A stretch of DNA of 32,000 nt from positions 630,001 through 662,000 of the forward strand of contig AP024486.1 in NCBI GenBank assembly GCA_021654395.1, written 5' to 3'. This document shows positions 37-22,716 of this stretch, one piece after another (positions within the stretch are counted from its first letter, which is position 1; each line of letters opens with the position of its first letter). The notes under the pieces are model-generated. The model did no database searches and was not told the DNA's origin. It worked only from the letters and a program-made list of their open reading frames with translations. The position numbers and the translations under genes were made by a program. The stretch is from Candidatus Saccharimonadota bacterium (GTDB lineage: Archaea > Micrarchaeota > Micrarchaeia > Micrarchaeales > Micrarchaeaceae).

Positions 37-390
37 CTATACTGCTAAGCTTATCTTGATATATAATAGTAAGACAGCAAGTCTTATTAGCGTGGATCTA
101 TCTATGTTATATGCTCTCTCGAGCTCATCCATTCTTTCTAGAGTTTTATCATCTACCTTAAAGCAGTGTATAAGGCCTCCAATGAAGGTCATATTTGCAT
201 CATCTATCAAAGCTTTATCAAGCCTCTCTGATCTATTATATCTATTGAATAGATTCTCTAAGCAGTATCTTATTAGATCTGATGACGTTTTTAGATTAAG
301 CTTTGCTCTGAGCTCTTTAAGTAGATTATCAAACTCTCCATTAGATTTAAAAGTCACTATATTATTAAGGCGTTCCTTATTCGCATTCAT
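37..390 (-). CDS. tandem ribbon-helix-helix (CopG/Arc-like) DNA-binding protein, 117 aa
   Basis: ATG at 388-390. Two consecutive strand-helix-turn-helix units fit the RHH pattern: IVTFKS..EFDNLLKELRAKLN..SSDLIRYCLENLF and HCFKVD..KTLERMDELERAYN..DRSTLIRLAVLLLY. The overlapping + strand ORF 56-430 is a Ser/Leu-rich antisense shadow. Confidence 0.5.
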   Translation of the reverse strand: MNANKERLNNIVTFKSNGEFDNLLKELRAKLNLKTSSDLIRYCLENLFNRYNRSERLDKALIDDANMTFIGGLIHCFKVDDKTLERMDELERAYNIDRSTLIRLAVLLLYIKISLAV

Positions 391-633
391 ACTTATCTAC
401 TTTAATTATCTCATAATAAGTAATCCATAGCTTAAAAGCTTAACTATATATAACAGCCATAGTCGAGATAACTTTAATTTTATAATCATTTAATATCTGC
501 ATAAAGCATATATTTAATAAAAGAGCATAAGCTTCTATGCCTTATATGTAACATAGCTTTATTAGTAGCAAGGACTATATTTAAAAGCTTTGCTAGAAAG
601 GTTAATATATTATATAATAAGTAAAGATAGAAT

Positions 634-2130
634 ATGGCTTCTAAAAGCACTGATAATAAATCAGAGTACTTAGATGCACTATCGTATGAGAAGGATTTAG
701 TAGAGGATATATTAAATAGTCTAAGCGATAATGATACATATCTAAAGAAGATATTTACTGTATATAGATCTAATCTAGAGGCTCTTTTGGATATATTAAA
801 TAATGAGGAATTAAATGGCGTTGTAGCTAACCTCTATAAGCTTCTACTTTTAGAGAACAGTGGAGATATAGGATATAATCTATCAGAGCTGCTTAAAAGA
901 AAAGATGATAGAATAAGCGATAGAGGCAGGGATCTTATAAAGAAGTTTATGGAGGATTCTATAATCTTAAGTAAAGATAAGAATAGCTCTAAAGAGTCTT
1001 TAGAGCGCCATCAAGCAATTAATAGGCTTAAGCTAGAGGCCATTGACCAGATTAATAAGAGTCCTGATGCTTCTCTAGTAGATTATGCCAAGTTTAATAT
1101 ATCAAAAGATAAAATCATAAACAATAAAAGCTATGATCCAAATACTAGTATAATTATAGAGCAGATTAAATTTATATACGATGAGATTAAGGGAATAAAA
1201 GATCATAGAGACTCAATGTCTAATAGTAATCAATATAAGGATGAAGAAGCAAGCATGATTGTAGCAAGACTTATACTTCTTGCTAGAAGAAGGGGAATAG
1301 AGCTACTATTTAGCAATATCTCTTATGAAGAGCTTAAAGAGATATCCAAAGCATATGTGTTATTTCCACTTGTAGTTTCTGATAATACTGATGCTGATTC
1401 AAATAAAATAGATAGGGCATTAAATGCAGTCAGAGCAGAGCTGCAGAGCAGATCTATAATAACTGTATTCAAAGAGTACGAGAGGCTAATAGCTTATTAC
1501 GGAAGTTATAAAAATGAAGGCATTATTCCAAGCTCTTTTGTAGATCAGTTAAGTGATTATAATGGATCTTATATAAAAAAGATCTCTGGACTTATATCTA
1601 ATGCTAATAAAACAGCTTCATATAAAAGATATATTAAAGATCTGTTAGATATATACAAGCTTCATAAAAGTCTACAAAAAGATCTAAACAATTTAAATAA
1701 GATGCACCTGAGCAGCCCGATTAGAGATGAATCTATAGATACTAAGAAGATAGAGTATTCAAAGGCTATTCTAGATAAGATAGATGAGATAAGATCTAAG
1801 CTAGATGAATTTACCCTTAATCTTTCAAGCTCATATATAGAAGCATCTATAAATAATAGTAAGGATAAGCTAGAGATGCTTGACCTAATATATGATATAT
1901 TAATTAATAATCCTTTAATATCTAGTAGCTCTATAGATCATATCTCAAGAACGTTAGTATTTAGATTTATAGGTATTAGTAAGGAGCAGCCGGATAAAAG
2001 AGATGAGGTTGAGCTAAAAAAGTTAAATTTAATAATAAAGGATTCTATCTCTAGATATACAAATCCATACAGAATAGAGATAGAATTTTTAATAAGACTA
2101 TTTAATAAAGAGGATCTTGAGCTGATCTGA
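634..2130 (+). CDS. hypothetical large all-alpha protein (498 aa), no recognisable motif
   Basis: ATG at 634 with an A/T-rich TATA-like box about 15-30 nt upstream (603-620). The long ORF has helix-favouring K/E/D/I/L/N composition, no TM segment and no catalytic motif I recognise. The N-terminus MASKSTDNKS resembles those of the other orphans in this window. Confidence 0.75.
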   Translation: MASKSTDNKSEYLDALSYEKDLVEDILNSLSDNDTYLKKIFTVYRSNLEALLDILNNEELNGVVANLYKLLLLENSGDIGYNLSELLKRKDDRISDRGRDLIKKFMEDSIILSKDKNSSKESLERHQAINRLKLEAIDQINKSPDASLVDYAKFNISKDKIINNKSYDPNTSIIIEQIKFIYDEIKGIKDHRDSMSNSNQYKDEEASMIVARLILLARRRGIELLFSNISYEELKEISKAYVLFPLVVSDNTDADSNKIDRALNAVRAELQSRSIITVFKEYERLIAYYGSYKNEGIIPSSFVDQLSDYNGSYIKKISGLISNANKTASYKRYIKDLLDIYKLHKSLQKDLNNLNKMHLSSPIRDESIDTKKIEYSKAILDKIDEIRSKLDEFTLNLSSSYIEASINNSKDKLEMLDLIYDILINNPLISSSSIDHISRTLVFRFIGISKEQPDKRDEVELKKLNLIIKDSISRYTNPYRIEIEFLIRLFNKEDLELI

Positions 2131-2155
2131 TGCTTATCATATGGTGTGAATAGCT

Positions 2156-3766
2156 ATGACCAGTATAAGTAAGAATAATAGCGAAGATAAGAAAAAGACG
2201 CTCAATATAATTGATGAAGAGATAAAGCTAGTTAATGGATATGAAAAAGCAGCTAAAGGCGATAATTTCTGGATCTTCAAGCTTGCAAGAGTGTCGCTAG
2301 AAAGTATAAGTAATATATTAAATAGCAATGAGAATTTTTCAATGAGGTTCATACCACTAATCATACATGATGTAAGAAGCATCTTTTTACATAGACTGAG
2401 CTTCCTTCTTATAAACTATGGAAGAGGCGAAGAGCTAGAGCAGCTAAAAGATTATATATCGAAGTCTAGCTTTATAAGCGATTATACTGGCTTTATAAAT
2501 AAAGATAATAGTAAAGTTAAGGAGTTCGATAAGCTATTTTTAGAAGGAATACTAGAAAAGTATAATGATTCAAAGAAAGTTATAGTAGATCAAGGATTTA
2601 TCAAAATAATTGAAAATATAGATATAGAGCCATTAAGGAATGAGATAGCCAAGATTATAGATAAAGTTAAGGCAGATCTCCCTACTAATATAACTATCCT
2701 ATTATCATTTAAATATATGGAGCTAGCTTATGATATTCTAGAAGTAAATATCAAAGAGATTAGTGGTAATGAGAATCAAAATGACGTTTCATATTTTATG
2801 AAGCACCATTTCTTGTTAAATATGATAGAAGAGATGGTTGATAGTATTCATTCTATAGTTACAACAAATATAAGTGAAGAAGATAGAAAAAGAATAATAA
2901 GGAGCCTAGGATTGGAGCCGCTTGTATATAGATTGCTATTATATGAAGGAGATCAAGCTAATAGCAATAAAGATGCAGATCAGAAGAGGCTAACGCTTTT
3001 CTACAACTCAGATAGTTTAATGTTAGCATCAAAGGTATATATGAGCATGGTAATTATGGGTTTTACCACCTATAGGTTAAAAGAAGAGTATAACGGTCTA
3101 AAAGGCAAGCTTGGTAATATATTACTATGTAAGTCTCTTATTGAATTCTATACTGGACTTAATCAATTTCCTACTCTAGGATCGCAGTATGGCTACCAGA
3201 ACAAATTTGATATTAAAAGATATTACAATATAATAAAAGATTCTAGCTATAATAAGATAATAAGAGATTCTATAAATAAAGTACTTGAAGGTCATAAGAA
3301 GCTAATAGAAATATTTAGTAACTATGAAGATAAAAAGATAGTTGAATTACTTGATAATGATGATTATGAAAATCTAGATAATGAAAGTAAGAAAATACTA
3401 TATCATATGGCTACTGCATTAAAGAGCATAGATGATGGATATGCAGAGCTATATAAAGAGCTAGTATCAAATAACAACATAGATGTAGATAAACTAGATG
3501 AGGTAGCAGATCTAATAATCAGCGATCCACTATCAGGCGAGCACACACTAAAGCTACTAATTAAGTACTATATATCTAGAGCAGTAGCTTTGGTTGGTAG
3601 CGATATTATATATAATGAAAAGATCGATAATAATCCTAAAGCCCTAAGTTACATTGGGAAGGCAGTCCTAACAATGATAGGAGCAAATAGCCTAGCAATT
3701 CAGATATTAAATTTTTACACCAGACTATTGTATAAAAGAATATTAGGATCTATAAAAAATATATAA
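2156..3766 (+). CDS. hypothetical large all-alpha protein (536 aa)
   Basis: ATG at 2156, 25 nt after the upstream stop, with an SD-like GGTG at 2143-2146. This suggests an operon with 634-2130. Helical composition, N-terminus MTSISKNNSEDKKK. The antisense ORF 2137-2382 is a shadow. Confidence 0.75.
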   Translation: MTSISKNNSEDKKKTLNIIDEEIKLVNGYEKAAKGDNFWIFKLARVSLESISNILNSNENFSMRFIPLIIHDVRSIFLHRLSFLLINYGRGEELEQLKDYISKSSFISDYTGFINKDNSKVKEFDKLFLEGILEKYNDSKKVIVDQGFIKIIENIDIEPLRNEIAKIIDKVKADLPTNITILLSFKYMELAYDILEVNIKEISGNENQNDVSYFMKHHFLLNMIEEMVDSIHSIVTTNISEEDRKRIIRSLGLEPLVYRLLLYEGDQANSNKDADQKRLTLFYNSDSLMLASKVYMSMVIMGFTTYRLKEEYNGLKGKLGNILLCKSLIEFYTGLNQFPTLGSQYGYQNKFDIKRYYNIIKDSSYNKIIRDSINKVLEGHKKLIEIFSNYEDKKIVELLDNDDYENLDNESKKILYHMATALKSIDDGYAELYKELVSNNNIDVDKLDEVADLIISDPLSGEHTLKLLIKYYISRAVALVGSDIIYNEKIDNNPKALSYIGKAVLTMIGANSLAIQILNFYTRLLYKRILGSIKNI

Positions 3767-3783
3767 ATATTCAGATAAAAGAT

Positions 3784-5517
3784 CTAGATATCGTAATCAT
3801 CTATAGAGTCTATGCATATAGCATCTACATTATATCTTGATATAAGATTCTCTAGTAGCTCCTCATTTGGAAGTACAAATATCGGCTTATAATGCATCCT
3901 ATCTGCTCTCTCTAATGCTCTCTTTATCTCTGATTCTCTAGTATTTGTCTGAACCTCATATACCTTATAAGGCTTATCCTCCCAGCTCTTATTGTCTAAG
4001 GATCTATAAACAAGAAGATCTGGTGAATCTCCGGATCCAGATACTATCAGATTACCTCTTAGCTGCTCATATCTTATAAGCTTATGCATCATAGCTTTAT
4101 GTAGCTCACCTCCAGAGAGTAAGCCTTGTCTCATTATAATTATACTAGGATCAACTATTGATAAAGCCTTATAAGATAGCTTACTATTCTCTATATAGCC
4201 TAGCGCGGTAGCTTTCTCTAGTATACTAAGATTTCTCTTATCTCCATATAGAGAGGCTCTGCTAATAAGCTTATTCTTTATAAGAAGCTCCTCTGCTCTC
4301 TTTATGCTAGATGCGTAATAAAGATAGACTAGAAATCTATATACTAATGGATCTACTCTATCTACGCTATTATTGCTATTATAAGCTGCATTACTAATAT
4401 CTCTCTTTCTCTTTAAGCTGTAGAGATAAGCTCTATCTGAGAGTCTATCTATAATAAGATACTCCATATCGGATAGCTTTCTTATAATATTAGCGTAGCT
4501 CTTGCTTATATTATATCTTAATGCCTTATAATCGTCTATCTGATATCTTGCAAATATAAGATATCTTGAGTTATCTATAGCAACCTTACTTAAGTCCTCA
4601 AGCTCTTGTGTTGAAACAACTACTCTTATACTATACTTCCTTGAATCTCTGTATAGCTTCTCTATTATGCTAAGATTAGAGCTACTTGCTATCAATCCGA
4701 AGTCGTCTATTATTACGCTTTTTCTTCTACTAGATCTTGTCAAGAGCAGTATCATATTCAAAAGCAGATCTATCTCCTGCTGGTTAAGCTTATCTATCTT
4801 TATAACAGTATTATTAGATAGTATTCCATCTATATCATCTATCAGAGAGTATGCTTCATTAAGAAGCTCTAATCTCTCTAGCATATATCTATAATGTAGC
4901 TTTATATCAGAATCTTTCTCTTTATAGTAGCTCTGTCTTATATAGCTTATTAGATCTCCAATACTAAGTCTACCTTTCTTATCAAGATACTTCATCGCTT
5001 TTAGTAGCTTGAGATACTGTAGCTCTGTTAATCCTATAGAGTCTCTTATTATGCCAGCGATCTTCTTTAATCCATAGCGGCTTATTAGATAGCTGCTTAA
5101 AGGATCTATAACTGCATTTTCTATAATATGAGAGCTTGAGCTATAGTAGCTATCGTCCAAAGTTATTAATATATAGCTATCTTTTAGCAGAAGCTCTTTT
5201 ATGAAGCTTGTCTTCCCACTGCCGGTTGCGCCTACTATGAATATATTAGAAGGGCGCATATCCTCAAATCTTATTACTTTATCTATATCCTCAAATCTAT
5301 TGTCTTTTATATCAAGAAGCTGCTCTCTTCCAAGAGTTAGATTTAGTATAGCTAATGAAAGAGTAAGAGCTAAAGCAGAGCATATAATATATAAATCCCT
5401 ATAGAAAGCAGAATGGATTAGAGGAGATACTAGAAGATATAAGATTATGTATATAGAAGTAAATACTATAAATCTTTTAACTGTTATATAATAAAGCCTC
5501 TTATCTAATAGGCCCAT
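3784..5517 (-). CDS. membrane-anchored HerA/VirB4/FtsK-type P-loop ATPase with C-terminal wHTH and Hjc-like PD-(D/E)xK nuclease module (577 aa)
   Basis: ATG at 5515-5517. Two N-terminal hydrophobic helices (about aa 16-36 and 42-62). Walker A GATGSGKT (aa 96-103, nt 5209-5232), Walker B SVIIDD (aa 267-272), and RDSRKYSIRVVVSTQELEDL (aa 290-309), the RK..TQ signature typical of HerA/VirB4. A wHTH-like segment spans about aa 390-455. The C-terminal GGELH..LIVSGSGDSPDLLVY..YKVYEVQT has the pattern of archaeal Hjc (E..GS..D..E-x-K), with Gln in place of Lys. Confidence 0.7.
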   Translation of the reverse strand: MGLLDKRLYYITVKRFIVFTSIYIILYLLVSPLIHSAFYRDLYIICSALALTLSLAILNLTLGREQLLDIKDNRFEDIDKVIRFEDMRPSNIFIVGATGSGKTSFIKELLLKDSYILITLDDSYYSSSSHIIENAVIDPLSSYLISRYGLKKIAGIIRDSIGLTELQYLKLLKAMKYLDKKGRLSIGDLISYIRQSYYKEKDSDIKLHYRYMLERLELLNEAYSLIDDIDGILSNNTVIKIDKLNQQEIDLLLNMILLLTRSSRRKSVIIDDFGLIASSSNLSIIEKLYRDSRKYSIRVVVSTQELEDLSKVAIDNSRYLIFARYQIDDYKALRYNISKSYANIIRKLSDMEYLIIDRLSDRAYLYSLKRKRDISNAAYNSNNSVDRVDPLVYRFLVYLYYASSIKRAEELLIKNKLISRASLYGDKRNLSILEKATALGYIENSKLSYKALSIVDPSIIIMRQGLLSGGELHKAMMHKLIRYEQLRGNLIVSGSGDSPDLLVYRSLDNKSWEDKPYKVYEVQTNTRESEIKRALERADRMHYKPIFVLPNEELLENLISRYNVDAICIDSIDDYDI

Positions 5518-5565
5518 ATCTAATATTTTTAGATCTTTAATCTTATATAGATTGCTTTATATAAG

Positions 5566-5639
5566 CGGGGTCGCCGAGATTTGAACTCGGATATCCAGCG
5601 CCCGAGGCTGGAAGTCTAACCAGGTTAGCTTACGACCCC
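5566..5639 (-). tRNA. tRNA-Pro: tRNA-Pro (anticodon CGG), no intron, CCA not encoded
   Basis: The reverse complement folds as a cloverleaf. Acceptor GGGGTCG/CGACCCC, D arm with A14, G18G19 and A21 (one C-A mismatch in the stem). Anticodon stem CCAGC/GCTGG with loop CTCGGGC (T33, anticodon CGG, G37 as expected for tRNA-Pro). T arm CCGAG-TTCAAAT-CTCGG. 74 nt including the discriminator. Confidence 0.88.
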
Positions 5640-5653
5640 TTAATATACTATTC

Positions 5654-5995
5654 TTAATAGTAATTTATTACAAGGCTTCCACGACCTTTCTTTATGCTTA
5701 TCTTACTCTTCTCAATACTTATCATTATTATACTACCTTGCATATACTCTTTTGATATGCTAATATTATCTCCATTCTTAGTAATAAAGTAACTGCTCTC
5801 TTTAAGTACTCCTAAGCTAAATACTTTATTATCTTTATAGTATAATACTATATACCTTCCATCATACCTCTTTTTAATTACGAATTGTATACTTTCTTTA
5901 TCATATGAATATGATATCAGTATATCTGATTTATCTAAAACAGAGCGATCTATATAAGCTGCTTTATTCTCTTTAACATATATACTATTAAACAA
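5654..5995 (-). CDS. hypothetical small beta-rich protein (113 aa); coding status uncertain
   Basis: The only possible start is TTG at 5993-5995; an in-frame stop lies 7 codons upstream and there is no N-terminal ATG. The stop is 15 nt from the tRNA 5' end, so the tRNA promoter must overlap the ORF's 3' end. Composition is strand-favouring, with a weak FHA-like spacing of motifs. Confidence 0.4.
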   Translation of the reverse strand: MFNSIYVKENKAAYIDRSVLDKSDILISYSYDKESIQFVIKKRYDGRYIVLYYKDNKVFSLGVLKESSYFITKNGDNISISKEYMQGSIIMISIEKSKISIKKGRGSLVINYY

Positions 5996-6053
5996 GCTAT
6001 AGCACCTGCTTACTCAATCAATTATCTATAAAAGTAAGAAGATATTATTAATC

Positions 6054-7424
6054 TTAGCTTCTAGTTAAGTCTTTGCTCTTTCTATTTTCAGATCTAAGCA
6101 GCTCCTTAAATGCATTTAGAGATTCTATAAGATCATCACTATTATCTTGAATTCTCATTACCACTAATCTTAGAAAGTACTTATGCAGATCTTCATCATC
6201 TATTACTATATTTGGTGCATTATAAGTATTAAGCCTAGAATCCTCTCTTACAATTCTATTTAAGTCATCTAATACGCGATATCCTTTATTACCTTGATGA
6301 TCTTCATTATCTAAAAGATTCATAACAGATTCTAAATCAATAACTTCTAGTATCTCAAGCACCGAATTAGCTAGCTTTACAGGATTATATCTCTTATTAC
6401 TTAAGATCTCACTAATCAGTAAATTGAATGCAGCTGCATTATTATCTTTATTATAGCTCATAAATCTATCAATAATGCGTTTAGCTATATCATTATCTTT
6501 AGTAGTCCTTAGCGCTACTAATGCGGCATTTGGTACCTTAAACATATCTATTTTAGTACCAAATGTATACTTAGAAAGCTCTTCCAGAAAGTTATCATCT
6601 GCTTTTACAATACGATCTTTTAATCTAGCAAGCCTATTCAAGAGCTCCTTACTCATTAAGCTGTCTAGCTCTTTTATAGCATTATTAGGATCTTCGCTCT
6701 CGCTTAAATATTTAAGAATATTAAAGAATATGTCCTCTATATCTCTTATATCTGGTGCATCTATCCTTTTTAAGATATTCTTTATTCTATCTTTGTACTT
6801 ATCTATGCTATCAAATAGCCCTTTGTATCTATCAAACAGCTCAGATATATTTTTAGTATCCATAGACTGTTCTTTTATGCCTTTATCTATACTATCAAGT
6901 ACTACAGATCTTCTATATTCATATAGCCAGTCTCTTATGAATGCTTTCTCATCGTTATTACTGCCCATACTATCTGCTATACGCTCTATAGATCCATCAG
7001 TATATCTATAAAGATCAGCGAATCCCTTAGCTATCTTCTCAGCATCTTCATTTCGGCCATCCTTTAGTAGAGTGTTTACCTTATCTACAATGTCATCTAT
7101 ATATTTAAGCTCAACGGCAGAGTTTAGTGATAGATACTCCCTGCCTTTAGTTTCTCCATATAGCTTACATCTCTTATTTATGCTGTTAAATCCATCTACG
7201 AAATTCTCAATAACGCTAACAAACTCACCTACTAATGAGCCATTTTGATCCTTACTACCTTTCTCTATAGATACTAGCTCATTAATATGTTCCATAAATT
7301 TATTTAATACAGATTTACCATCCGTTGAAGTATTTACTATGCTATATAGCTCATTCTTTAATCTAACTGGTAGTATATTATCTATATCTGAGCTATTACT
7401 CTTACTCGGCATATATATTACCAT
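6054..7424 (-). CDS. hypothetical large all-alpha protein (456 aa; alternative start at 7412)
   Basis: ATG at 7424 and a second ATG at 7412. The second gives MPSKSNSSD, which matches the Ser/Lys-rich N-termini of the other orphans. A TATA-like TATTTATAT lies in the 53-nt spacer upstream. Helical composition. The antisense ORF 6475-7011 is a Ser/Leu shadow. Confidence 0.75.
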   Translation of the reverse strand: MVIYMPSKSNSSDIDNILPVRLKNELYSIVNTSTDGKSVLNKFMEHINELVSIEKGSKDQNGSLVGEFVSVIENFVDGFNSINKRCKLYGETKGREYLSLNSAVELKYIDDIVDKVNTLLKDGRNEDAEKIAKGFADLYRYTDGSIERIADSMGSNNDEKAFIRDWLYEYRRSVVLDSIDKGIKEQSMDTKNISELFDRYKGLFDSIDKYKDRIKNILKRIDAPDIRDIEDIFFNILKYLSESEDPNNAIKELDSLMSKELLNRLARLKDRIVKADDNFLEELSKYTFGTKIDMFKVPNAALVALRTTKDNDIAKRIIDRFMSYNKDNNAAAFNLLISEILSNKRYNPVKLANSVLEILEVIDLESVMNLLDNEDHQGNKGYRVLDDLNRIVREDSRLNTYNAPNIVIDDEDLHKYFLRLVVMRIQDNSDDLIESLNAFKELLRSENRKSKDLTRS

Positions 7425-7477
7425 CTAGTAAATGATACTTTAAGATTATGTGATATAAATACCTTCTTGCATAAACT

Positions 7478-9154
7478 TTAAATATCCCTATAGCTATCTA
7501 TAAAGCCCGTTAATGACTTAAGGTATGTAATTAGGCTTATATCTCCAGCTTCTGGATACTTACTTATACTACCATCTATAGAAGCTTCATCAAGATCCCT
7601 TAACTTTATCTCATTGATTCTCTTACCTCTATCAATCTCTGAGATAACCTTATCTAATATCCTAAATACATTCTTTTTATGCTGCTTAGTATCTCTATTG
7701 AAGTCTATCTGCAATATAAAGCTAGCCGATTCTATAAGATCTGTTAGGCTATTAAACTCTATTGAATCAGAACTTATAGCTCTGATTGCATAGTCTATAA
7801 GCAGATGACATCTAAAGAGATTTGCGCCATAATCCTTAGCTATATTAACTTTAGCATCTTTATTATGTGAATATATAGATGCTATATTATACAGTAGCTT
7901 AACAGATCTAATAGCTACATCCTCATTGTATCCATTAGCAAGCTGGATTAGGCTTATGGCTTTCTTTATAATATCGACATTTAAAGCAGATCTCAATCCA
8001 GAGTATTCTCTACCTACAAGATTAACTATCTTAGAGAGCGCAACAGTCTCTATATAGGATAGCTCGTATAATCTTGTACCATTGAATGCTTCAAGGTACT
8101 GCTTTGCTATCTCTGTGCTATCTGTTATATAAAGCAGATTGAAGTAGAATCTAATAGGATTAACTGGTTTATGATACTTATAATCCTCGCCTTCTATTAT
8201 AGATATATACTGCTCAAGCCTGCTCTTATATCCATCATAGATATCTCTATCGTACATCTCCTCTATATCCTTAACTATACTAGAATGTCTATCTATAAAT
8301 CTCTCATCTATCTGCTCTAAAGCATCTGTCAGCTCCTTTACAAGAAGCTTCTTACTATCTAGAGTTAATCTAAGTATAGAGCTAAGGGCCGTGGCAGCTG
8401 CCCTTTTATCTTTATTAGCGATTAAGCTTATATGAGCGCTTAGTGCATCTACTGTATCCTTAATCAGATCTCTAGACCTTAATATATCTTCCTTATATAT
8501 AATCAATCTTTGTAGATCGGTGTTTCTATCTATAGAATCCAATATAGATTCATAGAATCTATTTCTTATTATGGTGCTACTGATATTACTTTTCTCAATA
8601 GTATTCAAGAAGAATCTCTGCTGCTCTATATAAAGATCCCTAAGCTCTTTTAGGAGATCTAGCCTCTTACCATAATCTTTATCTGAGATGCCAAGTATGC
8701 CATCTTCTAAATTTAAGTAATATAAAACTTTATTGATAAAGTTGAGATCTTCTATAACATGGAGCTTACCTATTCTACCTTTTTTATAAGTATTATTTAA
8801 TGATTCTATAATATCTATAACAGCCCTGATCGGCGACCTATCTTTCAATCTCTCTAATGCCTTACTATCATTACTAAGCTTAGAGATTCTTCTAAAAGAT
8901 CTAATAGTTAGATCTACAGCATTACCTATTGTATCATGTATGCTATCATCTATTATACGTATGCTGCTGCCAAATGTTATGCAGCTATCAGATAGTACCT
9001 TTCTGAAGCTTTCGTCTTTTATTATACTTAGTATATAACTCTTTAACTTCTTCGGATACTTGCTATTAGATATATCATACTCTAGTAGCTCTAACTCAGA
9101 GTTAAGTCTGACTAAGGCACTCAGATCCTTCTTAGCAAAGCTTTTAAATCCCAT
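7478..9154 (-). CDS. hypothetical large all-alpha protein (558 aa)
   Basis: ATG at 9152-9154. Long uninterrupted ORF with helix-rich, repeat-like composition, no TM segment and no recognisable catalytic motif. Confidence 0.75.
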   Translation of the reverse strand: MGFKSFAKKDLSALVRLNSELELLEYDISNSKYPKKLKSYILSIIKDESFRKVLSDSCITFGSSIRIIDDSIHDTIGNAVDLTIRSFRRISKLSNDSKALERLKDRSPIRAVIDIIESLNNTYKKGRIGKLHVIEDLNFINKVLYYLNLEDGILGISDKDYGKRLDLLKELRDLYIEQQRFFLNTIEKSNISSTIIRNRFYESILDSIDRNTDLQRLIIYKEDILRSRDLIKDTVDALSAHISLIANKDKRAAATALSSILRLTLDSKKLLVKELTDALEQIDERFIDRHSSIVKDIEEMYDRDIYDGYKSRLEQYISIIEGEDYKYHKPVNPIRFYFNLLYITDSTEIAKQYLEAFNGTRLYELSYIETVALSKIVNLVGREYSGLRSALNVDIIKKAISLIQLANGYNEDVAIRSVKLLYNIASIYSHNKDAKVNIAKDYGANLFRCHLLIDYAIRAISSDSIEFNSLTDLIESASFILQIDFNRDTKQHKKNVFRILDKVISEIDRGKRINEIKLRDLDEASIDGSISKYPEAGDISLITYLKSLTGFIDSYRDI

Positions 9155-9347
9155 ACAATCACTAGGCTGCTAATTATGCAACAGTTAAATATAATAGATA
9201 GCTAAGAGCAGTTTAGCTTAATAACTATACTTATTACTAAACTCTTATTTAGATCTTTAAGCCCTTATCCTATTTTATATATCTTATTAATCAAATTCTT
9301 TAAGTAGAGACTGGTATATTAAGCCTTTCATTTAATAATAGAAGTAG

Positions 9348-9650
9348 CTATATCATCTTCTTAAATATCATTGTCCTTAGTATCTTTGTAGCTAGTTGCT
9401 CTCCTTCCTTTGTTATTCTATACTCAACTCTCTTTGGATTATCGCTTATAGTATACTTCTTTAATATACCCTCTTTCTCAAGAAATTTAAGATCTCTTAC
9501 TAACGGAGTTGGATTAACATCTATTATCTCTTTTATAGCATTAAAGCTCATAGGCCACTTCATTATCCTGCATATAATATTTAGCTGCCTCTTAGTCAGT
9601 CTTACTCTCTTGCCTTTTACCTCTATTATATAGACCTTATTGCTTAGCAT
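9348..9650 (-). CDS. winged-helix transcriptional regulator (HxlR/ArsR-like)
   Basis: ICRIMKWPMSFNAIKEIIDVNPTPLVRDLKFLEKEGILKKY..PKRVEYRITKEGEQL matches the wHTH pattern ending in the wing motif (R)VEY.(L/I)T.(K/E)G. The start was moved from 9695 to the ATG at 9650. The first 15 codons are hydrophobic filler, and a TTTATAATAATAATATTT box (9661-9678) would then sit 11-28 nt upstream. Confidence 0.65.
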   Translation of the reverse strand: MLSNKVYIIEVKGKRVRLTKRQLNIICRIMKWPMSFNAIKEIIDVNPTPLVRDLKFLEKEGILKKYTISDNPKRVEYRITKEGEQLATKILRTMIFKKMI

Positions 9651-9831
9651 AATACCTATTTTTATAATAATAATATTTAAAAGCCTTAATCGCATACTTA
9701 TCTAAAAGTATAGTAATATTAACTATTCATATATCCAAACATACATTCAATGGCTCTCTATAGAGATATATATACAATTATAGAAAAGTATTTTAATAGT
9801 TTAAGATTTCTATTTATAAATAAGTGATGGT

Positions 9832-11993: not shown

Positions 11994-13970
11994 TTAGCTA
12001 GAGCTATTTGGAGGTATATAGTTAAACTCCCAGTTATTAGAATAAGAGACATTATAGGCCACTCCATTATTTTCATTGCCGCTATAGTCATTAGGGCTTC
12101 CATCTAGAGGCCACCAAGCTACAAGACTTCCTTTATCGACTGGAGCTCCGCTTATGCCCTCTAGATATAGCTGCTTTATCTGCTGTCTAGATAGAGAGCT
12201 ATTATATAGCTGTATATTCGCAATATAGCCGCTGAATCCACTATCACATGCAGAATCTGGATTAGCTCCTAAATATGTTATGCTTCCATTGCTCATATCT
12301 ATCTGCTGATTATACTGATAAGAGCCTGCGGGCACTCCATCTATATAGAAGCTTACATAGCTACCATTATAAGTAGCTACTATATTGACCCACTTGTTAT
12401 AAGGCACTGTTGAAGAGCTAAATAGATTTGTCTGAGATAATCCTGTGTTCCATAGCTCAAGCATTACTCTGTTTGGAGACCAGCTGCCACTAACTCCAAA
12501 TCTATAGAATGGTATACTATCTACAAAAGCTATCTCGCATTCATTACTCTGCTTTTGGTAGATCCATGCAGAGACCGTAATCTTATTATTTGAGTATATA
12601 GAGTCTAAAGAGCTCGAAGGCTTAACCTGTATATTCTCTGAGGATAAGCCGTTAAAGGAGGCGACATACTCTGGTAATCCATTAATACATGGAGCATCCG
12701 TCTTAAAGTATCTGTTTGAATAACAATCTTTACTATTCTGAGTGTATCCTGCTAAAAGTACCTTGGCTAAATCTATATAGCTTACATCATTAGAATCGTT
12801 TGTATATACTAATCCTATATTATATACATTACTATATGAGTAGTTGCATATAGCATCTATCTTATAGCTAGAATCTGCTACTATAGTTGTACCATAGCTC
12901 ATATTGCTTTTATATAGATAGCCATTATTATAAGCTAATGGATAGCTATTGCCATTGCATATTAGCTCTACATTGCCTATATACTTAGATCCTGTAACTC
13001 TTATAGGCATATCTAATACTATGTTATAGCTGCCATTATCATAGCTGATATCTGTTATATTGCATATAGATCCATTATACTCTAGACAGCCATAGGCTGC
13101 ATAGTTATATGTATAGTTATCTACTCCTCTAAACTGCATTATCTGGTATGTAGTATTGTATGAGGCATTTGCTATATATCTAAGCTCACCATGTAGACTA
13201 TAGCTATCGCCGCTACTATTCAGTGATCCATTTATATATACAAAGCCATTATTACAGCTAACTCTAAGATTAATAAATGCATATCTTTCATATATGCTAC
13301 TTCCTTGTATATAGAGAGCTATGGGCTTGCTTATATTATAGCTGCAGCTTGAGTTCAGATCAACAGATCCATTAAATATATTAACCACATCCTCTAAAAG
13401 ACCGTAGTATCTTAATCCTTTTATATATCTATAGCAGTAGCTGTTCATATAAGAGTTAGTATAGTAGGATCTATAGCATATATATGGAGTATTATTGCTA
13501 TATGCTATAGCTTCTGATCCGATATAGCTGTTATTATATAAGCTAATACCGACTATACTTCTATTTATATAGTTAATATATAGGTTATATCTAGAGCCGT
13601 TAATATCTATGTATCCTGAGTAGAGCTCTGTTGTATTATAACTCCTCACACTATTTATAATACCAGATATATTATCTGACTTTAAAGGCGCGATGCTATT
13701 TGCAACCTTATCTGAAGCTTTACTAATATGTATATGACTCTTTATAAGCATTATTACTGCAGCAAGCATTATAATAAGAATTATAATGATTATAGGCTTA
13801 GTTTGTATATTTATCTCTCTCTTCTTTGGTTTATCCTGTGGATTAGGCTTCTCTAATCTAGTTATATAGCCTTCCTTATCAACTGCTACTGGAACATACT
13901 CCTCTATACTTGTAACTATATCTTCATTACTATTCTGTTTCTCTTGATTACTGCCATCTGATATCTTCAT
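11994..13970 (-). CDS. type II membrane-anchored surface glycoprotein with C-terminal LamG/concanavalin-like domain (658 aa)
   Basis: ATG at 13968-13970. Cytoplasmic N-terminus of about 60 aa, then a single TM segment (PIIIIILIIMLAAVIMLI). The ectodomain is Asn/Tyr/Ser/Cys-rich, with about 25 N-x-S/T sequons by my count. The C-terminal segment VSAWIY..WVNIVATYNGSYVSFYIDG..GYIANIQLYNSSLS fits the LamG jelly-roll pattern. Confidence 0.8.
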   Translation of the reverse strand: MKISDGSNQEKQNSNEDIVTSIEEYVPVAVDKEGYITRLEKPNPQDKPKKREINIQTKPIIIIILIIMLAAVIMLIKSHIHISKASDKVANSIAPLKSDNISGIINSVRSYNTTELYSGYIDINGSRYNLYINYINRSIVGISLYNNSYIGSEAIAYSNNTPYICYRSYYTNSYMNSYCYRYIKGLRYYGLLEDVVNIFNGSVDLNSSCSYNISKPIALYIQGSSIYERYAFINLRVSCNNGFVYINGSLNSSGDSYSLHGELRYIANASYNTTYQIMQFRGVDNYTYNYAAYGCLEYNGSICNITDISYDNGSYNIVLDMPIRVTGSKYIGNVELICNGNSYPLAYNNGYLYKSNMSYGTTIVADSSYKIDAICNYSYSNVYNIGLVYTNDSNDVSYIDLAKVLLAGYTQNSKDCYSNRYFKTDAPCINGLPEYVASFNGLSSENIQVKPSSSLDSIYSNNKITVSAWIYQKQSNECEIAFVDSIPFYRFGVSGSWSPNRVMLELWNTGLSQTNLFSSSTVPYNKWVNIVATYNGSYVSFYIDGVPAGSYQYNQQIDMSNGSITYLGANPDSACDSGFSGYIANIQLYNSSLSRQQIKQLYLEGISGAPVDKGSLVAWWPLDGSPNDYSGNENNGVAYNVSYSNNWEFNYIPPNSSS

Positions 13971-18052: not shown

Positions 18053-18230
18053 CTATATCTACTCTATCTATATAAAATACTTAAGATAATCTTATAAAGA
18101 TAATTACTATATTGTGCAAGATTTAATCTAACCTTATTAATTTTTATAGTAATCCTGTAGCTTTCTAATAAAAGAGCTGCAGCTATAGTAAGCTTTAAAT
18201 TTATTCTATATGTATCATTAATTGATAGAT

Positions 18231-19019
18231 ATGGGATATCAGTTTAACGATCCTTACAAGAACCAGCCATTAGAGTTCGATATAGTTAGCATAGATGAGA
18301 TGGAGGTTGTTGATACACAGAGAAGGCCAAGTAAGCAGAATGTTGAGGCATTGATAAACTCTATATCTAAGATAGGCTTTATAACACCTATAATAGTATT
18401 CAAAGATAATAGTAGATACTTTATAATAGATGGACAGCACAGATTCTTAGCAGCCAGACAGCTAGGGATAACTAAGCTTCCTGTTATAATAGTACCTAAG
18501 AGCATAAAGGATCTGCTTCTTAATCTAAATACAGAGAAAGAACCAAATATAAGAGAGAGATCTTACATAGCTCTTAATGTATATAGAAATTATATGAAGC
18601 TTAATCCAGATATTAAGGAATCTGATCCTATAGTATTTGACTCTATACAAGAGCCTTACTTCGTTACATTAGGAATAGCTTATGAGAAGGATATGCATCT
18701 GGCTGGTAGCAGTATAGCTACAGTAATAAAGAAAGCAGATGGCCTAATAGATAAAGATATAAATGAGGCTTATAAGGAAAGAGAGCATAGAGCAGATCTA
18801 GTACTTACTGCTAATCAGATTATAAAAGAGATTGTGGAAGATATAAGGGCTAAGGGTGCTTGGAATCCATTTGTATATCAGTCTATAATATCACATACAA
18901 ACCCTTATAAGAAGAAGAGAAAGATTGGAGAGAGCTTCGATGACTTAATGAAAGAGTTTATATCAAAGTTAAACGCTCTGAAAGAGGATCCAACTCCTAT
19001 AATAGGAGCAAGAGAGTAA
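18231..19019 (+). CDS. ParB/sulfiredoxin-fold protein with DGQHR motif
   Basis: VSIDEMEVVDTQRRPS..NVEALINSISKIGFITPIIVFKD..YFIIDGQHRFLAARQLGITKLPVIIV fits the ParB N-terminal (Srx-like) domain with the DGQHR variant of the GxxR box, followed by a helical C-terminal half. The ORF-track start 18222 is TTG; the ATG is at 18231. Confidence 0.72.
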   Translation: MGYQFNDPYKNQPLEFDIVSIDEMEVVDTQRRPSKQNVEALINSISKIGFITPIIVFKDNSRYFIIDGQHRFLAARQLGITKLPVIIVPKSIKDLLLNLNTEKEPNIRERSYIALNVYRNYMKLNPDIKESDPIVFDSIQEPYFVTLGIAYEKDMHLAGSSIATVIKKADGLIDKDINEAYKEREHRADLVLTANQIIKEIVEDIRAKGAWNPFVYQSIISHTNPYKKKRKIGESFDDLMKEFISKLNALKEDPTPIIGARE

Positions 19020-19108
19020 AGCTTATATATGCCTTAAGATGCTATTTCCTATCTCTTTAAGTATATAGAAAATCTATATATATCTTGTTCTAACATATAA
19101 TATAATCT

Positions 19109-20251
19109 ATGAACGTCAACAATAATGGGTCTTTACATATTAGAGAAGATAATCTAAATGCAAAGATAGTAAAGTATAAAGTATTCGAGTCTAACCTAAA
19201 AGGCATAGATAAGATTATAGAGCACTTAAAGAGTATCTCTTCAGCGAAGGACTCTTTAAAGGTTAGTATAGTGCTTTCTAGGCAGTTCTTCGCTCCAAAC
19301 ACAGAGACTGCCTCTCTATTTGCATACTCCATATATCTATTTAAGAGGCTGCAGGAGGCACTAAAAGATAAGAGAGTAGAGGTTACATTAAATCTAATTA
19401 GCTTTACTAGAGATCGATATCTAGAAAGCAACCAATATAAAAGAACTTTAGTAAATATGCCCGCATTATATATAGGCGAGGATAATGGTATTAGAGTTCG
19501 TAATATGATAAGTCAGGATCTATCAAGAGGGATTAGCAGCAGTATGAGGATTGGAGATATAATACTTAGAGAGGATCATATTAAAGCGCTTGTAGATCTG
19601 GGCTATAATAACTCTAATTATAATAAAGAAGGTAGATTACCAGATTATATTCATGACACATTAATTAAGAACATAGAAGATATTATAAAGCCTTTAATTG
19701 ATGGAGCTGTTAGCTCTGAGCTAAAAGAAGAGGGCGATGCTAAGATAGTGCGTTTTGTAAAGGAGAATGGCTCTTCATTATCTGTAATTATTAGAGATAT
19801 AGGAGAGGTAGAGGGTGCAGATAATGCATATGCTGCAATTAAGAGCCATATAAAACATATCTCAGATAAGCATGAAATAGACCTTATTCTTTATGCAGAG
19901 GATGATCCAAATAACTATAGAGATACAAAGCCAGAGATCTATGAAGGGATAACTAGTATTGTAAGCGAATTAAGAAATGCTGCTCTGTTACTGCTACATA
20001 GCACAGAAGAGATTAGAGTAATGTTTGAGTCAAAGAATGAGCTTTATAATAGGCTATCTGGAAAAGGTCTAAAGAGGAATACTCCGATAGACTTTTTATT
20101 TATTGACAAGAGATCTTTCAGAGAAACTTTAAGAAAATTCCTAGAAGGTAAGCATGAAGACTTCTGGTCAGCACTTATTCACTATATAGAAAGCTCAATG
20201 AATCGCGCTAGAGAACCATTAGCGATAATAATAAAGCAGCAGACCACCTAA
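19109..20251 (+). CDS. hypothetical protein (380 aa), mixed alpha/beta, no recognisable motif
   Basis: ATG at 19109 with a TATA-like AAATCTATATATATC at about -25 to -35. It lies 89 nt downstream of the ParB-like gene on the same strand. The antisense ORF 19090-19431 is a shadow. Confidence 0.7.
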   Translation: MNVNNNGSLHIREDNLNAKIVKYKVFESNLKGIDKIIEHLKSISSAKDSLKVSIVLSRQFFAPNTETASLFAYSIYLFKRLQEALKDKRVEVTLNLISFTRDRYLESNQYKRTLVNMPALYIGEDNGIRVRNMISQDLSRGISSSMRIGDIILREDHIKALVDLGYNNSNYNKEGRLPDYIHDTLIKNIEDIIKPLIDGAVSSELKEEGDAKIVRFVKENGSSLSVIIRDIGEVEGADNAYAAIKSHIKHISDKHEIDLILYAEDDPNNYRDTKPEIYEGITSIVSELRNAALLLLHSTEEIRVMFESKNELYNRLSGKGLKRNTPIDFLFIDKRSFRETLRKFLEGKHEDFWSALIHYIESSMNRAREPLAIIIKQQTT

Positions 20252-20294
20252 GAGCTTAAAGATAGATTATTAACCTCTTTATAAAAAATTATTG

Positions 20295-21242
20295 ATGATT
20301 GTTATGAAGATAGATTACTTCTTTAATATACTAGAGAGGCTTGAAGCACTTGCACCAAGAAGCTTAGAGAATGAGAATAAGGCAGCGGAGCTTATTAAGA
20401 GAGAGTTAGAAGAGAGCGGAATAGATTTTATAACTCAAGAGTTTGATAATTATATTCCTTATGATAAAGGCTCTTATATAAAGACAGATAATGATAAGAT
20501 AGAAGGCAGAGGATGCTCATTTGAGGCTGGAAGCTTTGAGGATAAGAATATCTTTACAAGTACATACTTAGATCTAGATATAGATATAAGCAATATAAAC
20601 TATAATCCTTACTCTTATGGCTTATCAGTCCCTTTATTCTTTAAGAGTCCGTCAATAGCTGTAAGAAGAAAGGATATACATAAGATATTAGATGCAGAAG
20701 CAGTAGAAGTAAGTGTCAATATAGAGAAGAGAAAGCATAGATGCATGAATATAATAGCAGGCAATATAAAGAATCCTAGGAGTATACTATTTGCTCATTA
20801 TGATACAATCCTAAAAGGAGCAGATGATGATGGAAGTGGTGTAGCGCTACTTCTCAGTATGTTAAAAGATAATGATATAGACTATAAAGAGAATGCAGTT
20901 GTCTTCTCTGGCTGTGAGGAGCTCTCCTACGACTATCCATACTACTGGGGATACGGCTACAGAGTCTTTGAAGAGAGCTATAAGAAGGAGCTCGAGTCAT
21001 CAGAGATAGTTGTTGTTGATATGATAGGCTTAACTAAGCCAAGCCTAATAGACAATGAGCTAAAGATACAAGCATTCCCAGTTAATAATAAGGATCTTAT
21101 AGATAGAATGCTTCTTATAAGCGAGAGTAATGAGAAGGAATGGATAAAGTACTATCATTCTGATATAGACAATATAGACCTACTTAAGAGAGACTATGTT
21201 GAAGAGGCGAGTAAGCTCGTGAAGCAGCTTATAAAGAGATGA
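20295..21242 (+). CDS. M28-family metallopeptidase (aminopeptidase-like)
   Basis: ILFAHYDTILKGADDDGSGVALLLSML (His, then the Asp-containing GA.D..SG motif), FSGCEELS (the EE position) and YYHSDIDNIDLL (terminal His..D) follow the M28 zinc-ligand order. The start is ambiguous (TTG 20292, ATG 20295 or 20304). Confidence 0.7.
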   Translation: MIVMKIDYFFNILERLEALAPRSLENENKAAELIKRELEESGIDFITQEFDNYIPYDKGSYIKTDNDKIEGRGCSFEAGSFEDKNIFTSTYLDLDIDISNINYNPYSYGLSVPLFFKSPSIAVRRKDIHKILDAEAVEVSVNIEKRKHRCMNIIAGNIKNPRSILFAHYDTILKGADDDGSGVALLLSMLKDNDIDYKENAVVFSGCEELSYDYPYYWGYGYRVFEESYKKELESSEIVVVDMIGLTKPSLIDNELKIQAFPVNNKDLIDRMLLISESNEKEWIKYYHSDIDNIDLLKRDYVEEASKLVKQLIKR

Positions 21243-21312
21243 ATAATTTAATTATACGGCTTTGCTATTACTTGCTCTTGTCTCATAGATAGCGCTAGAC
21301 TTTAGAGCTAAG

Positions 21313-21969: not shown

Positions 21970-22082
21970 AAATATCACTTGTTCTAATAGCTTAGACTGA
22001 TATTAATATATAAAGCTTTAGGGAAAGATTTTTAAGATAAGTAGCAATAAAGAGAAAGAGATAGCTTAGTTATAGATATTAT

Positions 22083-22655: not shown

Positions 22656-22716
22656 GAACCACACCAGATAACTATTTCAATTTAAAAAAATAAAAAGATA
22701 ATCTGAATCTATTAGC

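Follow-up and report, generated by a model that had tools for sequence, protein, structure and literature searches.

Is this 9.6-kb orphan-rich stretch a single DNA-handling system, as an earlier note on the sequence had proposed, an integrated mobile element, or an ordinary part of the chromosome? The locus corresponds to ARM1_0659–0666 (proteins BCS91202–BCS91209) of Microcaldus variisymbioticus ARM-1, a cultivated, symbiotic DPANN archaeon with a tiny genome. We favor, at a probability of roughly 50%, a run of orphan genes that are native to the ARM-1 chromosome and specific to its lineage, with one unusual membrane translocase, over an element acquired recently or a proven multi-gene system.

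Gene layout and origin of the orphan run

Re-derivation of the gene layout within the window, the whole 32-kb stretch of DNA that was analyzed, reproduced the earlier coordinates of all eight ORFs and of tRNA-Pro (CGG) (Table 1). With a codon model trained on the remainder of the window, the annotated frame received the best codon score in every one of the eight. The genes for the HxlR regulator, h558, h456, b113, the tRNA, and the ATPase form one co-directional array, and the h498–h536 operon is convergent with the ATPase gene, ending 17 nt from its stop codon. The 25-nt spacer described earlier between h498 and h536 was found together with its GGTG, 8 to 14 nt ahead of the h536 ATG, and tRNA-Pro does lie just upstream of the ATPase gene, with a gap of 47 nt to the ATPase start. 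The array and the convergent operon are compatible with functional linkage. The 113-aa ORF, previously called doubtful, is probably a real gene, as it has AGGTG approximately 9 nt before its TTG start and is predicted by gene-callers, in addition to its codon score.

Table 1. Features of the ARM1_0659–0666 locus; positions count from the first letter of the window.
Feature	Position	Strand	Remarks
ARM1_0659 (BCS91202)	37..390	-	117-aa RHH protein, probably tandem RHH
23-nt element ATTTAAAAGCTTTGCTAGAAAGG	579..601	+	33-55 nt upstream of h498 start
ARM1_0660 (BCS91203), h498	634..2130	+	498-aa soluble acidic orphan, pI 5.6; first gene of two-gene operon
ARM1_0661 (BCS91204), h536	2156..3766	+	536-aa soluble orphan
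ARM1_0662 (BCS91205)	3784..5517	-	577-aa predicted membrane-anchored FtsK/HerA/VirB4-superfamily ATPase with 200-aa C-terminal extension
Acidic C-terminal segment of ARM1_0662	3787..4122	-	residues 466-577, pI 5.2; putative (earlier "Hjc-like nuclease")
Basic helical segment of ARM1_0662	4123..4377	-	residues 381-465, pI 9.6; putative (earlier "wHTH"); helices from low-confidence model
ATPase core of ARM1_0662	4408..5265	-	residues 85-370; motifs and profile matches
Two-helix transmembrane N-terminal hairpin of ARM1_0662	5332..5487	-	about residues 11-62; Kyte-Doolittle scans
tRNA-Pro (CGG)	5565..5639	-	intact
ARM1_0663 (BCS91206), b113	5654..5995	-	113-aa basic Tyr/Ile/Lys-rich orphan
ARM1_0664 (BCS91207), h456	6054..7424	-	456-aa soluble acidic orphan, pI 5.1
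ARM1_0665 (BCS91208), h558	7478..9154	-	558-aa soluble orphan
Second copy of ATTTAAAAGCTTTGCTAGAAAGG element	9127-9149	-	21/23 identical; inside h558 codons 2-9
ARM1_0666 (BCS91209)	9348..9695	-	HxlR-family winged-helix regulator; Pfam HxlR

The orphan status claimed for the locus holds. An exhaustive HMMER phmmer search against 1.84 billion representatives returned self-matches only for h536 and h558, and no relatives of the ATPase, h498, or h456 were found in searches less sensitive than this one. Each of the eight proteins is a singleton 90% cluster, the four large helical proteins showed no family matches in Pfam, NCBIfam, PADLOC, or PHROGs, and no relatives were found in IMG/VR, JGI metagenome contigs, INPHARED, or PLSDB. 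Cultivated micrarchaea harbor 311 to 324 lineage-unique genes each, and ARM-1 has 849 CDS (PMC8784108); about 37% of ARM-1 genes are lineage-unique. The adjacent 10 kb similarly contains helical-looking orphans of 26 to 33% GC among Ham1, DUF72, an FtsZ-like gene, and LemA. Six orphans in a row therefore come as no surprise in ARM-1.

A decayed integrated mobile element (conjugative, plasmid, or viral) was also considered; it would have entered at tRNA-Pro, and its remains would be the VirB4/T4CP-like ATPase, the small regulators, and orphans specific to the element. Such an origin would account for the tRNA gene within the cluster, the RHH and winged-helix regulators with PHROG matches, the VirB4/TraG-like ATPase, and a GC content of approximately 30 to 31%, under the 34.1% of the genome. 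However, the flanking 10 kb, where neighboring orphans flank housekeeping genes, is equally low in GC (30.2%), and codon usage in the annotated frames is that of the genome, with only a slightly lower GC3. Additionally, no integrase was found in the window or in the 10 kb to its left, the window contains no att repeat and no duplicated fragment of either end of tRNA-Pro, and the locus genes have no viral or plasmid relatives in the three element databases (IMG/VR, INPHARED, and PLSDB), which together make a mobile origin distinctly unlikely.

The membrane ATPase ARM1_0662

The predicted translocase of this run is the 577-aa protein, which is 100% identical to ARM1_0662 (814,439-bp contig). The two N-terminal transmembrane helices described earlier were seen as two hydrophobic helices, placed by a low-confidence model at residues 6–33 and 37–69. 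Walker A (GATGSGKT, residues 96–103), Walker B (VIIDD, residues 268–272), and an RK...STQ arginine-finger/sensor motif (RKYSIRVVVSTQ, residues 293–304) are all intact. Among the large genes, ARM1_0662 alone permits inference of a mechanism.

The HerA/VirB4/FtsK-type P-loop that had been read from the sequence was recovered by Pfam, NCBIfam, PADLOC, tblastn, and an alignment to 8j4u. The PADLOC mad8 profile matched residues 84–326 (E 4e-12), a generic match since this profile was made from PDB homologs, and the PADLOC HerA profile matched weakly (E 0.009). Among NCBIfam profiles, TraC-F-type matched residues 259–349 (E 1e-9) and VirB4_CagE followed at E 1e-3, while tblastn aligned residues 91–309 to a Bacteroidetes-type TraG ATPase (E 0.02, 23.7% identity). 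The only PDB match spanning the Walker B/sensor region was the HerA of a defense complex, 8j4u (E 0.13), whose GRKFKCSLIVSTQ pairs with RKYSIRVVVSTQ (GRKF...STQ). Matches to Pfam FtsK_SpoIIIE and TrwB covered only 20 to 30 residues or so around Walker A. On the basis of these motifs and matches, ARM1_0662 is predicted to be a membrane-anchored FtsK/HerA/VirB4-superfamily ATPase, tentatively nearest to VirB4/TraC/HerA since all family scores lie far below curated cut-offs.

The C-terminal extension had been interpreted as a wHTH followed by an Hjc-like nuclease. Neither module found backing in profiles or structure, as residues 380–577 gave zero matches in Pfam, PADLOC, PHROGs, NCBIfam, or PDB sequences, and the AlphaFold model of the ATPase (pLDDT 43.7) was unusable, with meaningless matches in the Foldseek search that had been suggested. 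What remains is a D...E-x-Q motif (D500...E521-V-Q523) in the acidic segment and an alpha-beta-beta-beta-alpha-beta-alpha pattern in the low-confidence model. The orphan locus and the membrane FtsK/HerA/VirB4 ATPase of the earlier interpretation stand, and its nuclease and wHTH modules are unsupported.

By analogy with every characterized member of the superfamily, ARM1_0662 would most likely form a ring at the cytoplasmic face of the membrane, with the two-helix hairpin as its anchor and the P-loop core beginning approximately 30 residues on. Judging from the superfamily alone, ATP would power its transport of a polymer along the membrane or across it; DNA is the most probable substrate, with protein or RNA also conceivable. 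More speculatively, the 200-residue C-terminal extension may bind, and possibly cut, the substrate.

A ring fused to a nuclease could also point to an anti-virus or anti-plasmid defense locus of the HerA-plus-effector type, in which the ATPase ring activates the nuclease and the fast-evolving helical proteins are sensors. The weak matches to PADLOC HerA, mad8, and 8j4u agree with such a role, as do fast divergence and lineage restriction, which are typical for defense genes. However, PADLOC yielded generic ATPase profiles only and no other system component, the roughly 30 residues between the second transmembrane helix and Walker A leave no space for a HAS-barrel N-domain, and the nuclease is only putative. 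HerA defense complexes are also not typically membrane-anchored. We therefore regard a defense function as very unlikely.

Helical proteins and regulators

In a hydrophobicity scan, no transmembrane helices were found in h498, h536, h456, or h558. These proteins lack any DNA-binding signature, and their pI values range from 5.1 to 7.1 (acidic to neutral). Their earlier description as all-alpha finds support for h558 only, which is approximately 85% helix by DSSP on a low-confidence model (pLDDT 36.7). Resemblance among the four is weak and differs by method; their evolution is fast, and any origin by tandem duplication would be a distant one. Polar S/K/N-rich N-termini are common to all of them. 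The same N-terminal style also occurs in unrelated orphans of the flank.

The 23-nt element ATTTAAAAGCTTTGCTAGAAAGG has only two copies in the 32 kb, and the alignment score of the pair is 18 against a genomic null maximum of 17. With one copy at the 5' end of each of h498 and h558, the two helical operons may be co-regulated.

The two regulators had been considered dedicated to the locus. However, the Ham1 gene lies 31 nt downstream of the RHH gene on the same strand, outside the window, and the two are probably co-transcribed, while the HxlR gene is divergent from SerRS; both proteins are ordinary small regulators. In ARM1_0659, Pfam RHH_1 matched residues 78–110 (E 1.8e-7), NCBIfam aCcr1_fam gave E 4e-8, under its cut-off, and PHROG 876 spans residues 10–112, which confirms the RHH assignment and is compatible with a tandem arrangement. 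The winged-helix regulator noted before proved to be of HxlR type (PF01638, E 1.1e-10; its 41.6 bits exceed the cut-off of 20.8).

These results bear on the proposal that the ATPase works with both regulators and all four helical proteins as one new DNA-handling machine, which in one variant would import host DNA at the symbiont–host contact to be degraded for nucleotides. The dense packing of the genes in two convergent arrays, an ATPase from a DNA-pumping superfamily, and the 5' element common to both helical operons speak for it. ARM-1 lacks nucleotide biosynthesis (PMC8784108), and DPANN offer precedents in VirB4/TraG-like ATPases that are anchored in the membrane and for which an action on hosts has been proposed (PMC10266531). 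Nevertheless, a single machine appears unlikely, considering that no homologs were found in which gene co-occurrence could show, that the nuclease module is putative and has no profile match, and that neither a membrane channel nor a pilin is encoded within 42 kb. The helical proteins are also acidic and lack a DNA-binding signature, orphan runs are common in the ARM-1 genome, and the RHH gene appears operonic with Ham1.

A further explanation is that ARM1_0662 is a protein-export coupling ATPase, like a T4SS coupling protein or T7SS EssC/EccC, and that the soluble helical proteins are substrates or effectors sent to the host. Coupling proteins have an FtsK-like core directly behind their N-terminal transmembrane helices, an arrangement that ARM1_0662 resembles, and the Pfam TrwB and FtsK P-loop matches agree with it. 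Lineage-specific helical paralogs are typical for symbiont effectors, and the S/K/N-rich N-termini on all four proteins could be read in the same way. However, that N-terminal style is shared with the unrelated flank orphans, and channel components are not encoded nearby. Moreover, the nanotubes joining ARM-1 and its host arise from the host (PMC11329633), and we consider export the least probable of the explanations weighed here.

Comparison with known systems

The locus matches none of the three contexts named earlier (integrated elements, archaeal DNA exchange, and HerA-plus-nuclease defense); it comes without a CedA/VirB6-like channel, pilin, integrase, att site, or PADLOC system. HerA-NurA, Sir2-HerA, and DUF4297-HerA share the theme of a HerA-type ring with a nuclease, as reflected in the 8j4u match (E 0.13). 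However, these complexes are soluble, contain a HAS-barrel, and carry the effector on a separate chain, whereas ARM1_0662 is predicted to be membrane-anchored and its nuclease is conjectured. In FtsK/SpoIIIE and the type IV coupling proteins (VirD4/TrwB), N-terminal transmembrane helices lead directly into the motor, as in ARM1_0662. The FtsK C-terminus carries a DNA-recognition winged helix, whereas a winged helix in ARM1_0662 is only putative, and nothing in this group corresponds to its putative C-terminal alpha/beta module.

CedB, CedD, and TedB of the crenarchaeal Ced/Ted DNA import systems, found in thermoacidophilic archaea, are likewise VirB4/HerA-like ATPases with a membrane anchor, and CedD has been described as a transmembrane segment with an N-terminal domain and the ATPase (PMC11868833). 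However, the VirB4-like N-terminal domain of CedB and CedD is missing from ARM1_0662, no sequence similarity to the Ced/Ted ATPases was detected in the searches run, and the VirB6-like channel (CedA/TedA) and pilin (CedA1/TedC) required there have no counterpart within 42 kb. The SPEARE-type giant proteins of Nanohaloarchaeota, also DPANN, are membrane proteins with a cytoplasmic VirB4/TraG-like ATPase domain and a proposed role in host interaction (PMC10266531). Their likeness to ARM1_0662 is one of architecture; they are giant, carry very large Ig-like arrays outside the cell, and have a second VirB4 ATPase as a neighbor, in contrast to ARM1_0662, which has no extracellular part.

Finally, the best profile and tblastn matches were to VirB4, TraC, Bacteroidetes TraG, and HerA, which resemble ARM1_0662 in Walker A, Walker B, and the RK(Y/F)...(S/T)Q motif. 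ARM1_0662 differs from them in having neither the VirB4 N-terminal domain nor the HerA HAS-barrel and no T4SS partners nearby, and it alone carries a 200-aa C-terminal extension.

Gene models and the search for relatives

The 577-aa ATPase matches ARM1_0662 from 'Candidatus Micrarchaeota archaeon' ARM-1 at 100% identity, and the eight proteins of the locus correspond to ARM1_0659-0666 (BCS91202-BCS91209), all eight being singletons at 90% clustering. Microcaldus variisymbioticus ARM-1 is a cultivated thermoacidophilic DPANN symbiont with 849 CDS and 34.1% GC (PMC8784108), and a proteomics paper detected 698 of its 849 proteins. ARM1_0660 shares its 90% cluster with two unrelated JGI fragments, 52 aa and 32 aa long. 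One carries the name 'lipopolysaccharide export system ATP-binding protein', and the grouping looks like an artefact of clustering and not homology.

The eight ORFs and the tRNA-Pro(CGG) gene described in the earlier note were all recovered in place. For every ORF of the locus, codon scoring trained on the window's other genes favoured the annotated frame, and GGTG/GTGAT-type Shine-Dalgarno motifs precede two of the large helical proteins (h536, ARM1_0661; h558, ARM1_0665) and the doubtful 113-aa ORF. Since the gene models check out, the earlier observation is sound at the gene level. A scan for sigma-70 promoters and terminators was discarded, as it is irrelevant in an archaeon and gave fewer sites than in shuffles.

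The orphan status of the four large proteins held, with zero matches in Pfam, NCBIfam, PADLOC and PHROGs. An exhaustive phmmer search of 1.84 billion representatives of ~15 billion proteins, using concatenated h536 and h558 as query, returned self-matches only. For the ATPase and the other two helical proteins (h498, ARM1_0660; h456, ARM1_0664) the evidence comes from less sensitive searches, which are in agreement. In word-index protein searches the ATPase matched itself alone and h558 was the sole match of a four-sequence profile; concatenated h498 and h456 recovered nothing, themselves included, which makes that search uninformative. The ATPase, h498 and h456 were without relatives in IMG/VR or INPHARED, h498 and h456 were also without relatives in JGI metagenome contigs, and the matches of the ATPase in PLSDB were weak and at P-loop level (E of at least 0.02). 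Sequence and profile searches of the PDB were empty except for one weak HerA match. Finally, a SerRS-anchored synteny scan identified the Micrarchaeota MAG REEA36 as the closest genome among GTDB representatives (SerRS 53% identical); its SerRS neighbourhood is wholly different, and the genome lacks homologues of all the locus proteins.

Coordinates of the locus and of neighbouring features (L001, DNA reaching left of the window; L003, SerRS locus of the nearest relative)
Feature	Sequence	Coordinates	Strand	Position or content
Orphan locus	window	37-9695		ARM1_0659-0666 and tRNA-Pro(CGG)
RHH and Ham1-like (ITPase) genes	window; L001	37-390; 10001-10943	same for both	31 nt between the genes
Six left-flank orphan genes	L001	10380-20354		137-386 aa
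23-nt element, first copy	window	579-601	+	33-55 nt upstream of h498 start
23-nt element, second copy	window	9127-9149	-	across codons 2-9 of h558
20-nt match, first copy	window	2757-2776	+	in h536
20-nt match, second copy	window	6151-6170	-	in h456
658-aa protein	window	11994-13970	-	one N-terminal TM helix
Neighbouring gene group	window	18222-22664		ParB_N-domain protein, 380-aa orphan, M28 peptidase, ankyrin-repeat protein (218-221 aa), thymidine kinase
Surface-type proteins of the relative	L003	76-3831		large, Ser/Thr/Asn-rich

A membrane-anchored ATPase of the FtsK-HerA superfamily

The membrane ATPase with a HerA/VirB4/FtsK-type P-loop proposed from the sequence was confirmed, as the protein combines two TM helices with an intact FtsK-HerA-type catalytic core. 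Two hydrophobic helices occupy ~residues 11-62, and only ~30 residues separate the end of the second, at ~residue 62, from Walker A (GxxGxGK[ST]; GATGSGKT, residues 96-103). Walker B (hhhhD[DE]; VIIDD, residues 268-272) is present, as is the RK(F/Y)x...(S/T)Q arginine-finger/sensor strand (RKYSIRVVVSTQ, residues 293-304), which aligns with GRKFKCSLIVSTQ of 8j4u, a HerA from a defence complex.

The P-loop matches AAA_22, TrwB and FtsK_SpoIIIE in Pfam. Additional matches were obtained with PADLOC mad8 (E 4e-12, residues 84-326), a generic profile because it is built from PDB homologues, and in the Walker B region with NCBIfam TraC-F-type (E 1e-9, residues 259-349) and VirB4_CagE (E 1e-3); tblastn aligned residues 91-309 with a Bacteroidetes-type TraG (VirB4-type) ATPase at 23.7% identity. 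The agreement of independent profile libraries points to a member of the FtsK-HerA superfamily nearest to VirB4/TraC/HerA. The scores are below the curated cut-offs in both NCBIfam (TraC 36.8 bits vs 567; VirB4_CagE 17.4 vs 643) and Pfam (FtsK_SpoIIIE 19.3 vs 24; TrwB 20.2 vs 20.5), and the protein has none of the defining N-terminal domains of VirB4, CedB/CedD or HerA. On the basis of these low scores and missing defining domains, the ATPase was filed as a divergent superfamily member with a new architecture, outside any named family. An AlphaFold2 single-sequence model reached a pLDDT of 43.7, and Foldseek matched it to nothing in the PDB at E < 0.1; the matches, with TM-scores of at most 0.13, are noise from a low-confidence model.

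The earlier note also placed a wHTH and an Hjc-like nuclease module behind the ATPase core, and neither could be substantiated. Residues 380-577, searched whole or as sub-segments, gave no relevant match in Pfam, PDB sequences, PADLOC, PHROGs or NCBIfam; profile searches matched no wHTH family at ~residues 385-465, and a PD-(D/E)xK profile or structure match was not found. Residues 381-465 are basic (pI 9.6) and helical in the low-confidence model, and residues 466-577 are acidic (pI 5.2). The acidic part carries D500 and E521-V-Q523, in which Gln replaces the Lys of D...(D/E)-x-K, on an alpha-beta-beta-beta-alpha-beta-alpha pattern whose order fits the PD-(D/E)xK core at a model pLDDT of ~40-55. 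These features are compatible with a PD-(D/E)xK variant, yet they are not evidence for one, and we hold a C-terminal nuclease to be doubtful, at well short of even odds.

As a superfamily member the ATPase would be expected to form a ring and to drive the ATP-dependent movement of a polymer at the membrane, DNA being the likeliest. More speculatively, its C-terminal extension might bind or cut the substrate, and any part for the helical proteins in such a mechanism would be equally speculative.

The four helical proteins and their shared repeats

The four helical proteins contain no TM helices and have pI values of 5.1-7.1; an AlphaFold2 model of h558 from a four-sequence alignment is ~85% helix at a pLDDT of 36.7. 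Three pairs (h498-h536, h536-h558 and h456-h558) gave long, collinear alignments with Smith-Waterman scores of 112-129, above all 120 same-genome decoy comparisons (maximum 85), at z 4.2-5.8 over shuffles and 4-6 SD above both residue and windowed shuffles. Firm paralogy was at first accepted from these z-scores. It was later downgraded because of further controls: a block-permutation null keeping local helical features gave p ~0.003, 0.01-0.03 and 0.02-0.1 for the three pairs, and phmmer --max, BLASTP with composition statistics and hhalign detected no similarity among the four proteins. An old tandem duplication, best supported for the adjacent h498 and h536, is plausible but not established.

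Two short repeats are shared between the helical genes. The first is a 23-nt element whose two copies, the only ones in 32 kb, are 21/23 identical and lie in the same orientation relative to their genes; its score of 18 exceeds the genomic null maximum of 17 by a slight margin. Patchy similarity (TTATATKTAAC, ATTAGYAGC; MAFFT) continues for ~60 nt further upstream. The element could be a shared operator, a 5' leader element or the relic of a duplicated 5' end. The second, AGATTAGTGGTAATGAGAAT, is a perfect 20-nt match on the sense strand of h536 and of h456, reaching ~30/32 nt when a 1-nt indel is allowed; the reading frames differ before the indel (ISGNEN vs RLVVMRI) and agree after it. Its estimated chance expectation is ~0.003 in 12 kb, and either coincidence or a recent patch-like conversion may explain it.

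Genomic setting and comparison with known systems

No integrase or recombinase was found among the eight proteins, elsewhere in the window or in the gene calls for the left-hand 10 kb; each 25-nt end of tRNA-Pro is unique in 32 kb (up to 3 mismatches), so that no att repeat is seen, and no repeats bounding the locus were found. Codon usage is native, and viral or plasmid relatives are absent. With integrase, att repeat, codon usage and relatives all negative, the evidence speaks against an integrated mobile element at tRNA-Pro. The GC content of the locus (30-31%) is not specific to it, since the 10 kb to the left are equally low (30.2%).

This left flank contains six more genes without a Pfam match (GC 26-33%), which alternate with Ham1, DUF72, a short (229-aa) tubulin/FtsZ-family gene and LemA, and whose polar N-termini, rich in S, N, K and D, resemble those of the four helical proteins. 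Cultivated micrarchaea each have 311-324 lineage-unique genes, against 849 CDS in ARM-1, or ~37% (PMC8784108), and by our own estimate ~2 runs of six orphans are expected by chance in its genome. The ARM-1 genome is phylogenetically isolated, AT-rich and fast-evolving; as about one third of its genes are without relatives, an orphan cluster beside a tRNA is not by itself evidence of a system or an island. We rate the locus as a real orphan run holding an architecturally new ATPase; for a coherent system there is no evidence yet.

The wHTH regulator at the right end, ARM1_0666, was confirmed and assigned to the HxlR family (PF01638, 41.6 bits vs a gathering threshold of 20.8, E 1.1e-10). That the regulators are dedicated to the locus could not be demonstrated for either one: the RHH gene precedes Ham1, and the HxlR gene is divergent from SerRS. 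Close spacing on a shared strand suggests that RHH and Ham1 form an operon. The second RHH repeat of ARM1_0659 matched the aCcr1 cell-cycle regulator family at E 4e-8, under the cut-off.

Further into the window, the 658-aa protein, probably glycosylated and located at the cell surface, is very rich in N-x-S/T sequons and Tyr and has a lectin/LamG-like-looking region at its C-terminus; the SerRS locus of the nearest relative also encodes surface-type proteins. The neighbouring gene group brings together ankyrin repeats and nucleoside salvage, which is notable for a host-dependent archaeon.

ARM-1 is among the few cultivated DPANN archaea. Nucleotide biosynthesis is lacking in ARM-1 (PMC8784108), which makes host-DNA scavenging an attractive idea. 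We give a probability of only about one in twelve to the full reading, in which ARM1_0662 would be a new membrane DNA pump-nuclease fusion that works with a lineage-specific family of helical partners at the DPANN-host contact to import host DNA and degrade it for nucleotides. Anchored in the membrane and extended by an unusual C-terminus, this FtsK/HerA/VirB4-type motor is a concrete, clonable and testable candidate for a part in the nucleotide supply of DPANN symbionts and in their exchange with the host.

Among known systems, the Ced/Ted DNA-exchange machinery differs in several respects. In CedB and CedD a VirB4-like N-terminal domain separates the ATPase from its membrane anchor (PMC11868833); this domain is missing from ARM1_0662, where the anchor lies close to Walker A. 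Neither the VirB6-like polytopic channel (CedA/TedA) nor the two-TM pilin (CedA1/TedC) has a counterpart within 42 kb: across the 32-kb window and 10 kb leftward, ORFs were predicted to have at most 3 TM helices, and the small two-TM ORFs in those 42 kb are all antisense to known genes. Without a VirB6/CedA-like polytopic protein or a pilin in those 42 kb, the locus does not qualify as Ced/Ted. Of the HerA-effector and MADS defence systems (PADLOC), the locus matched mad8 and HerA, both generic ATPase profiles, and no other component. The closest DPANN precedent for ARM1_0662 is found in the nanohaloarchaeal SPEARE proteins, which carry membrane-anchored VirB4/TraG-like ATPase domains (PMC10266531).
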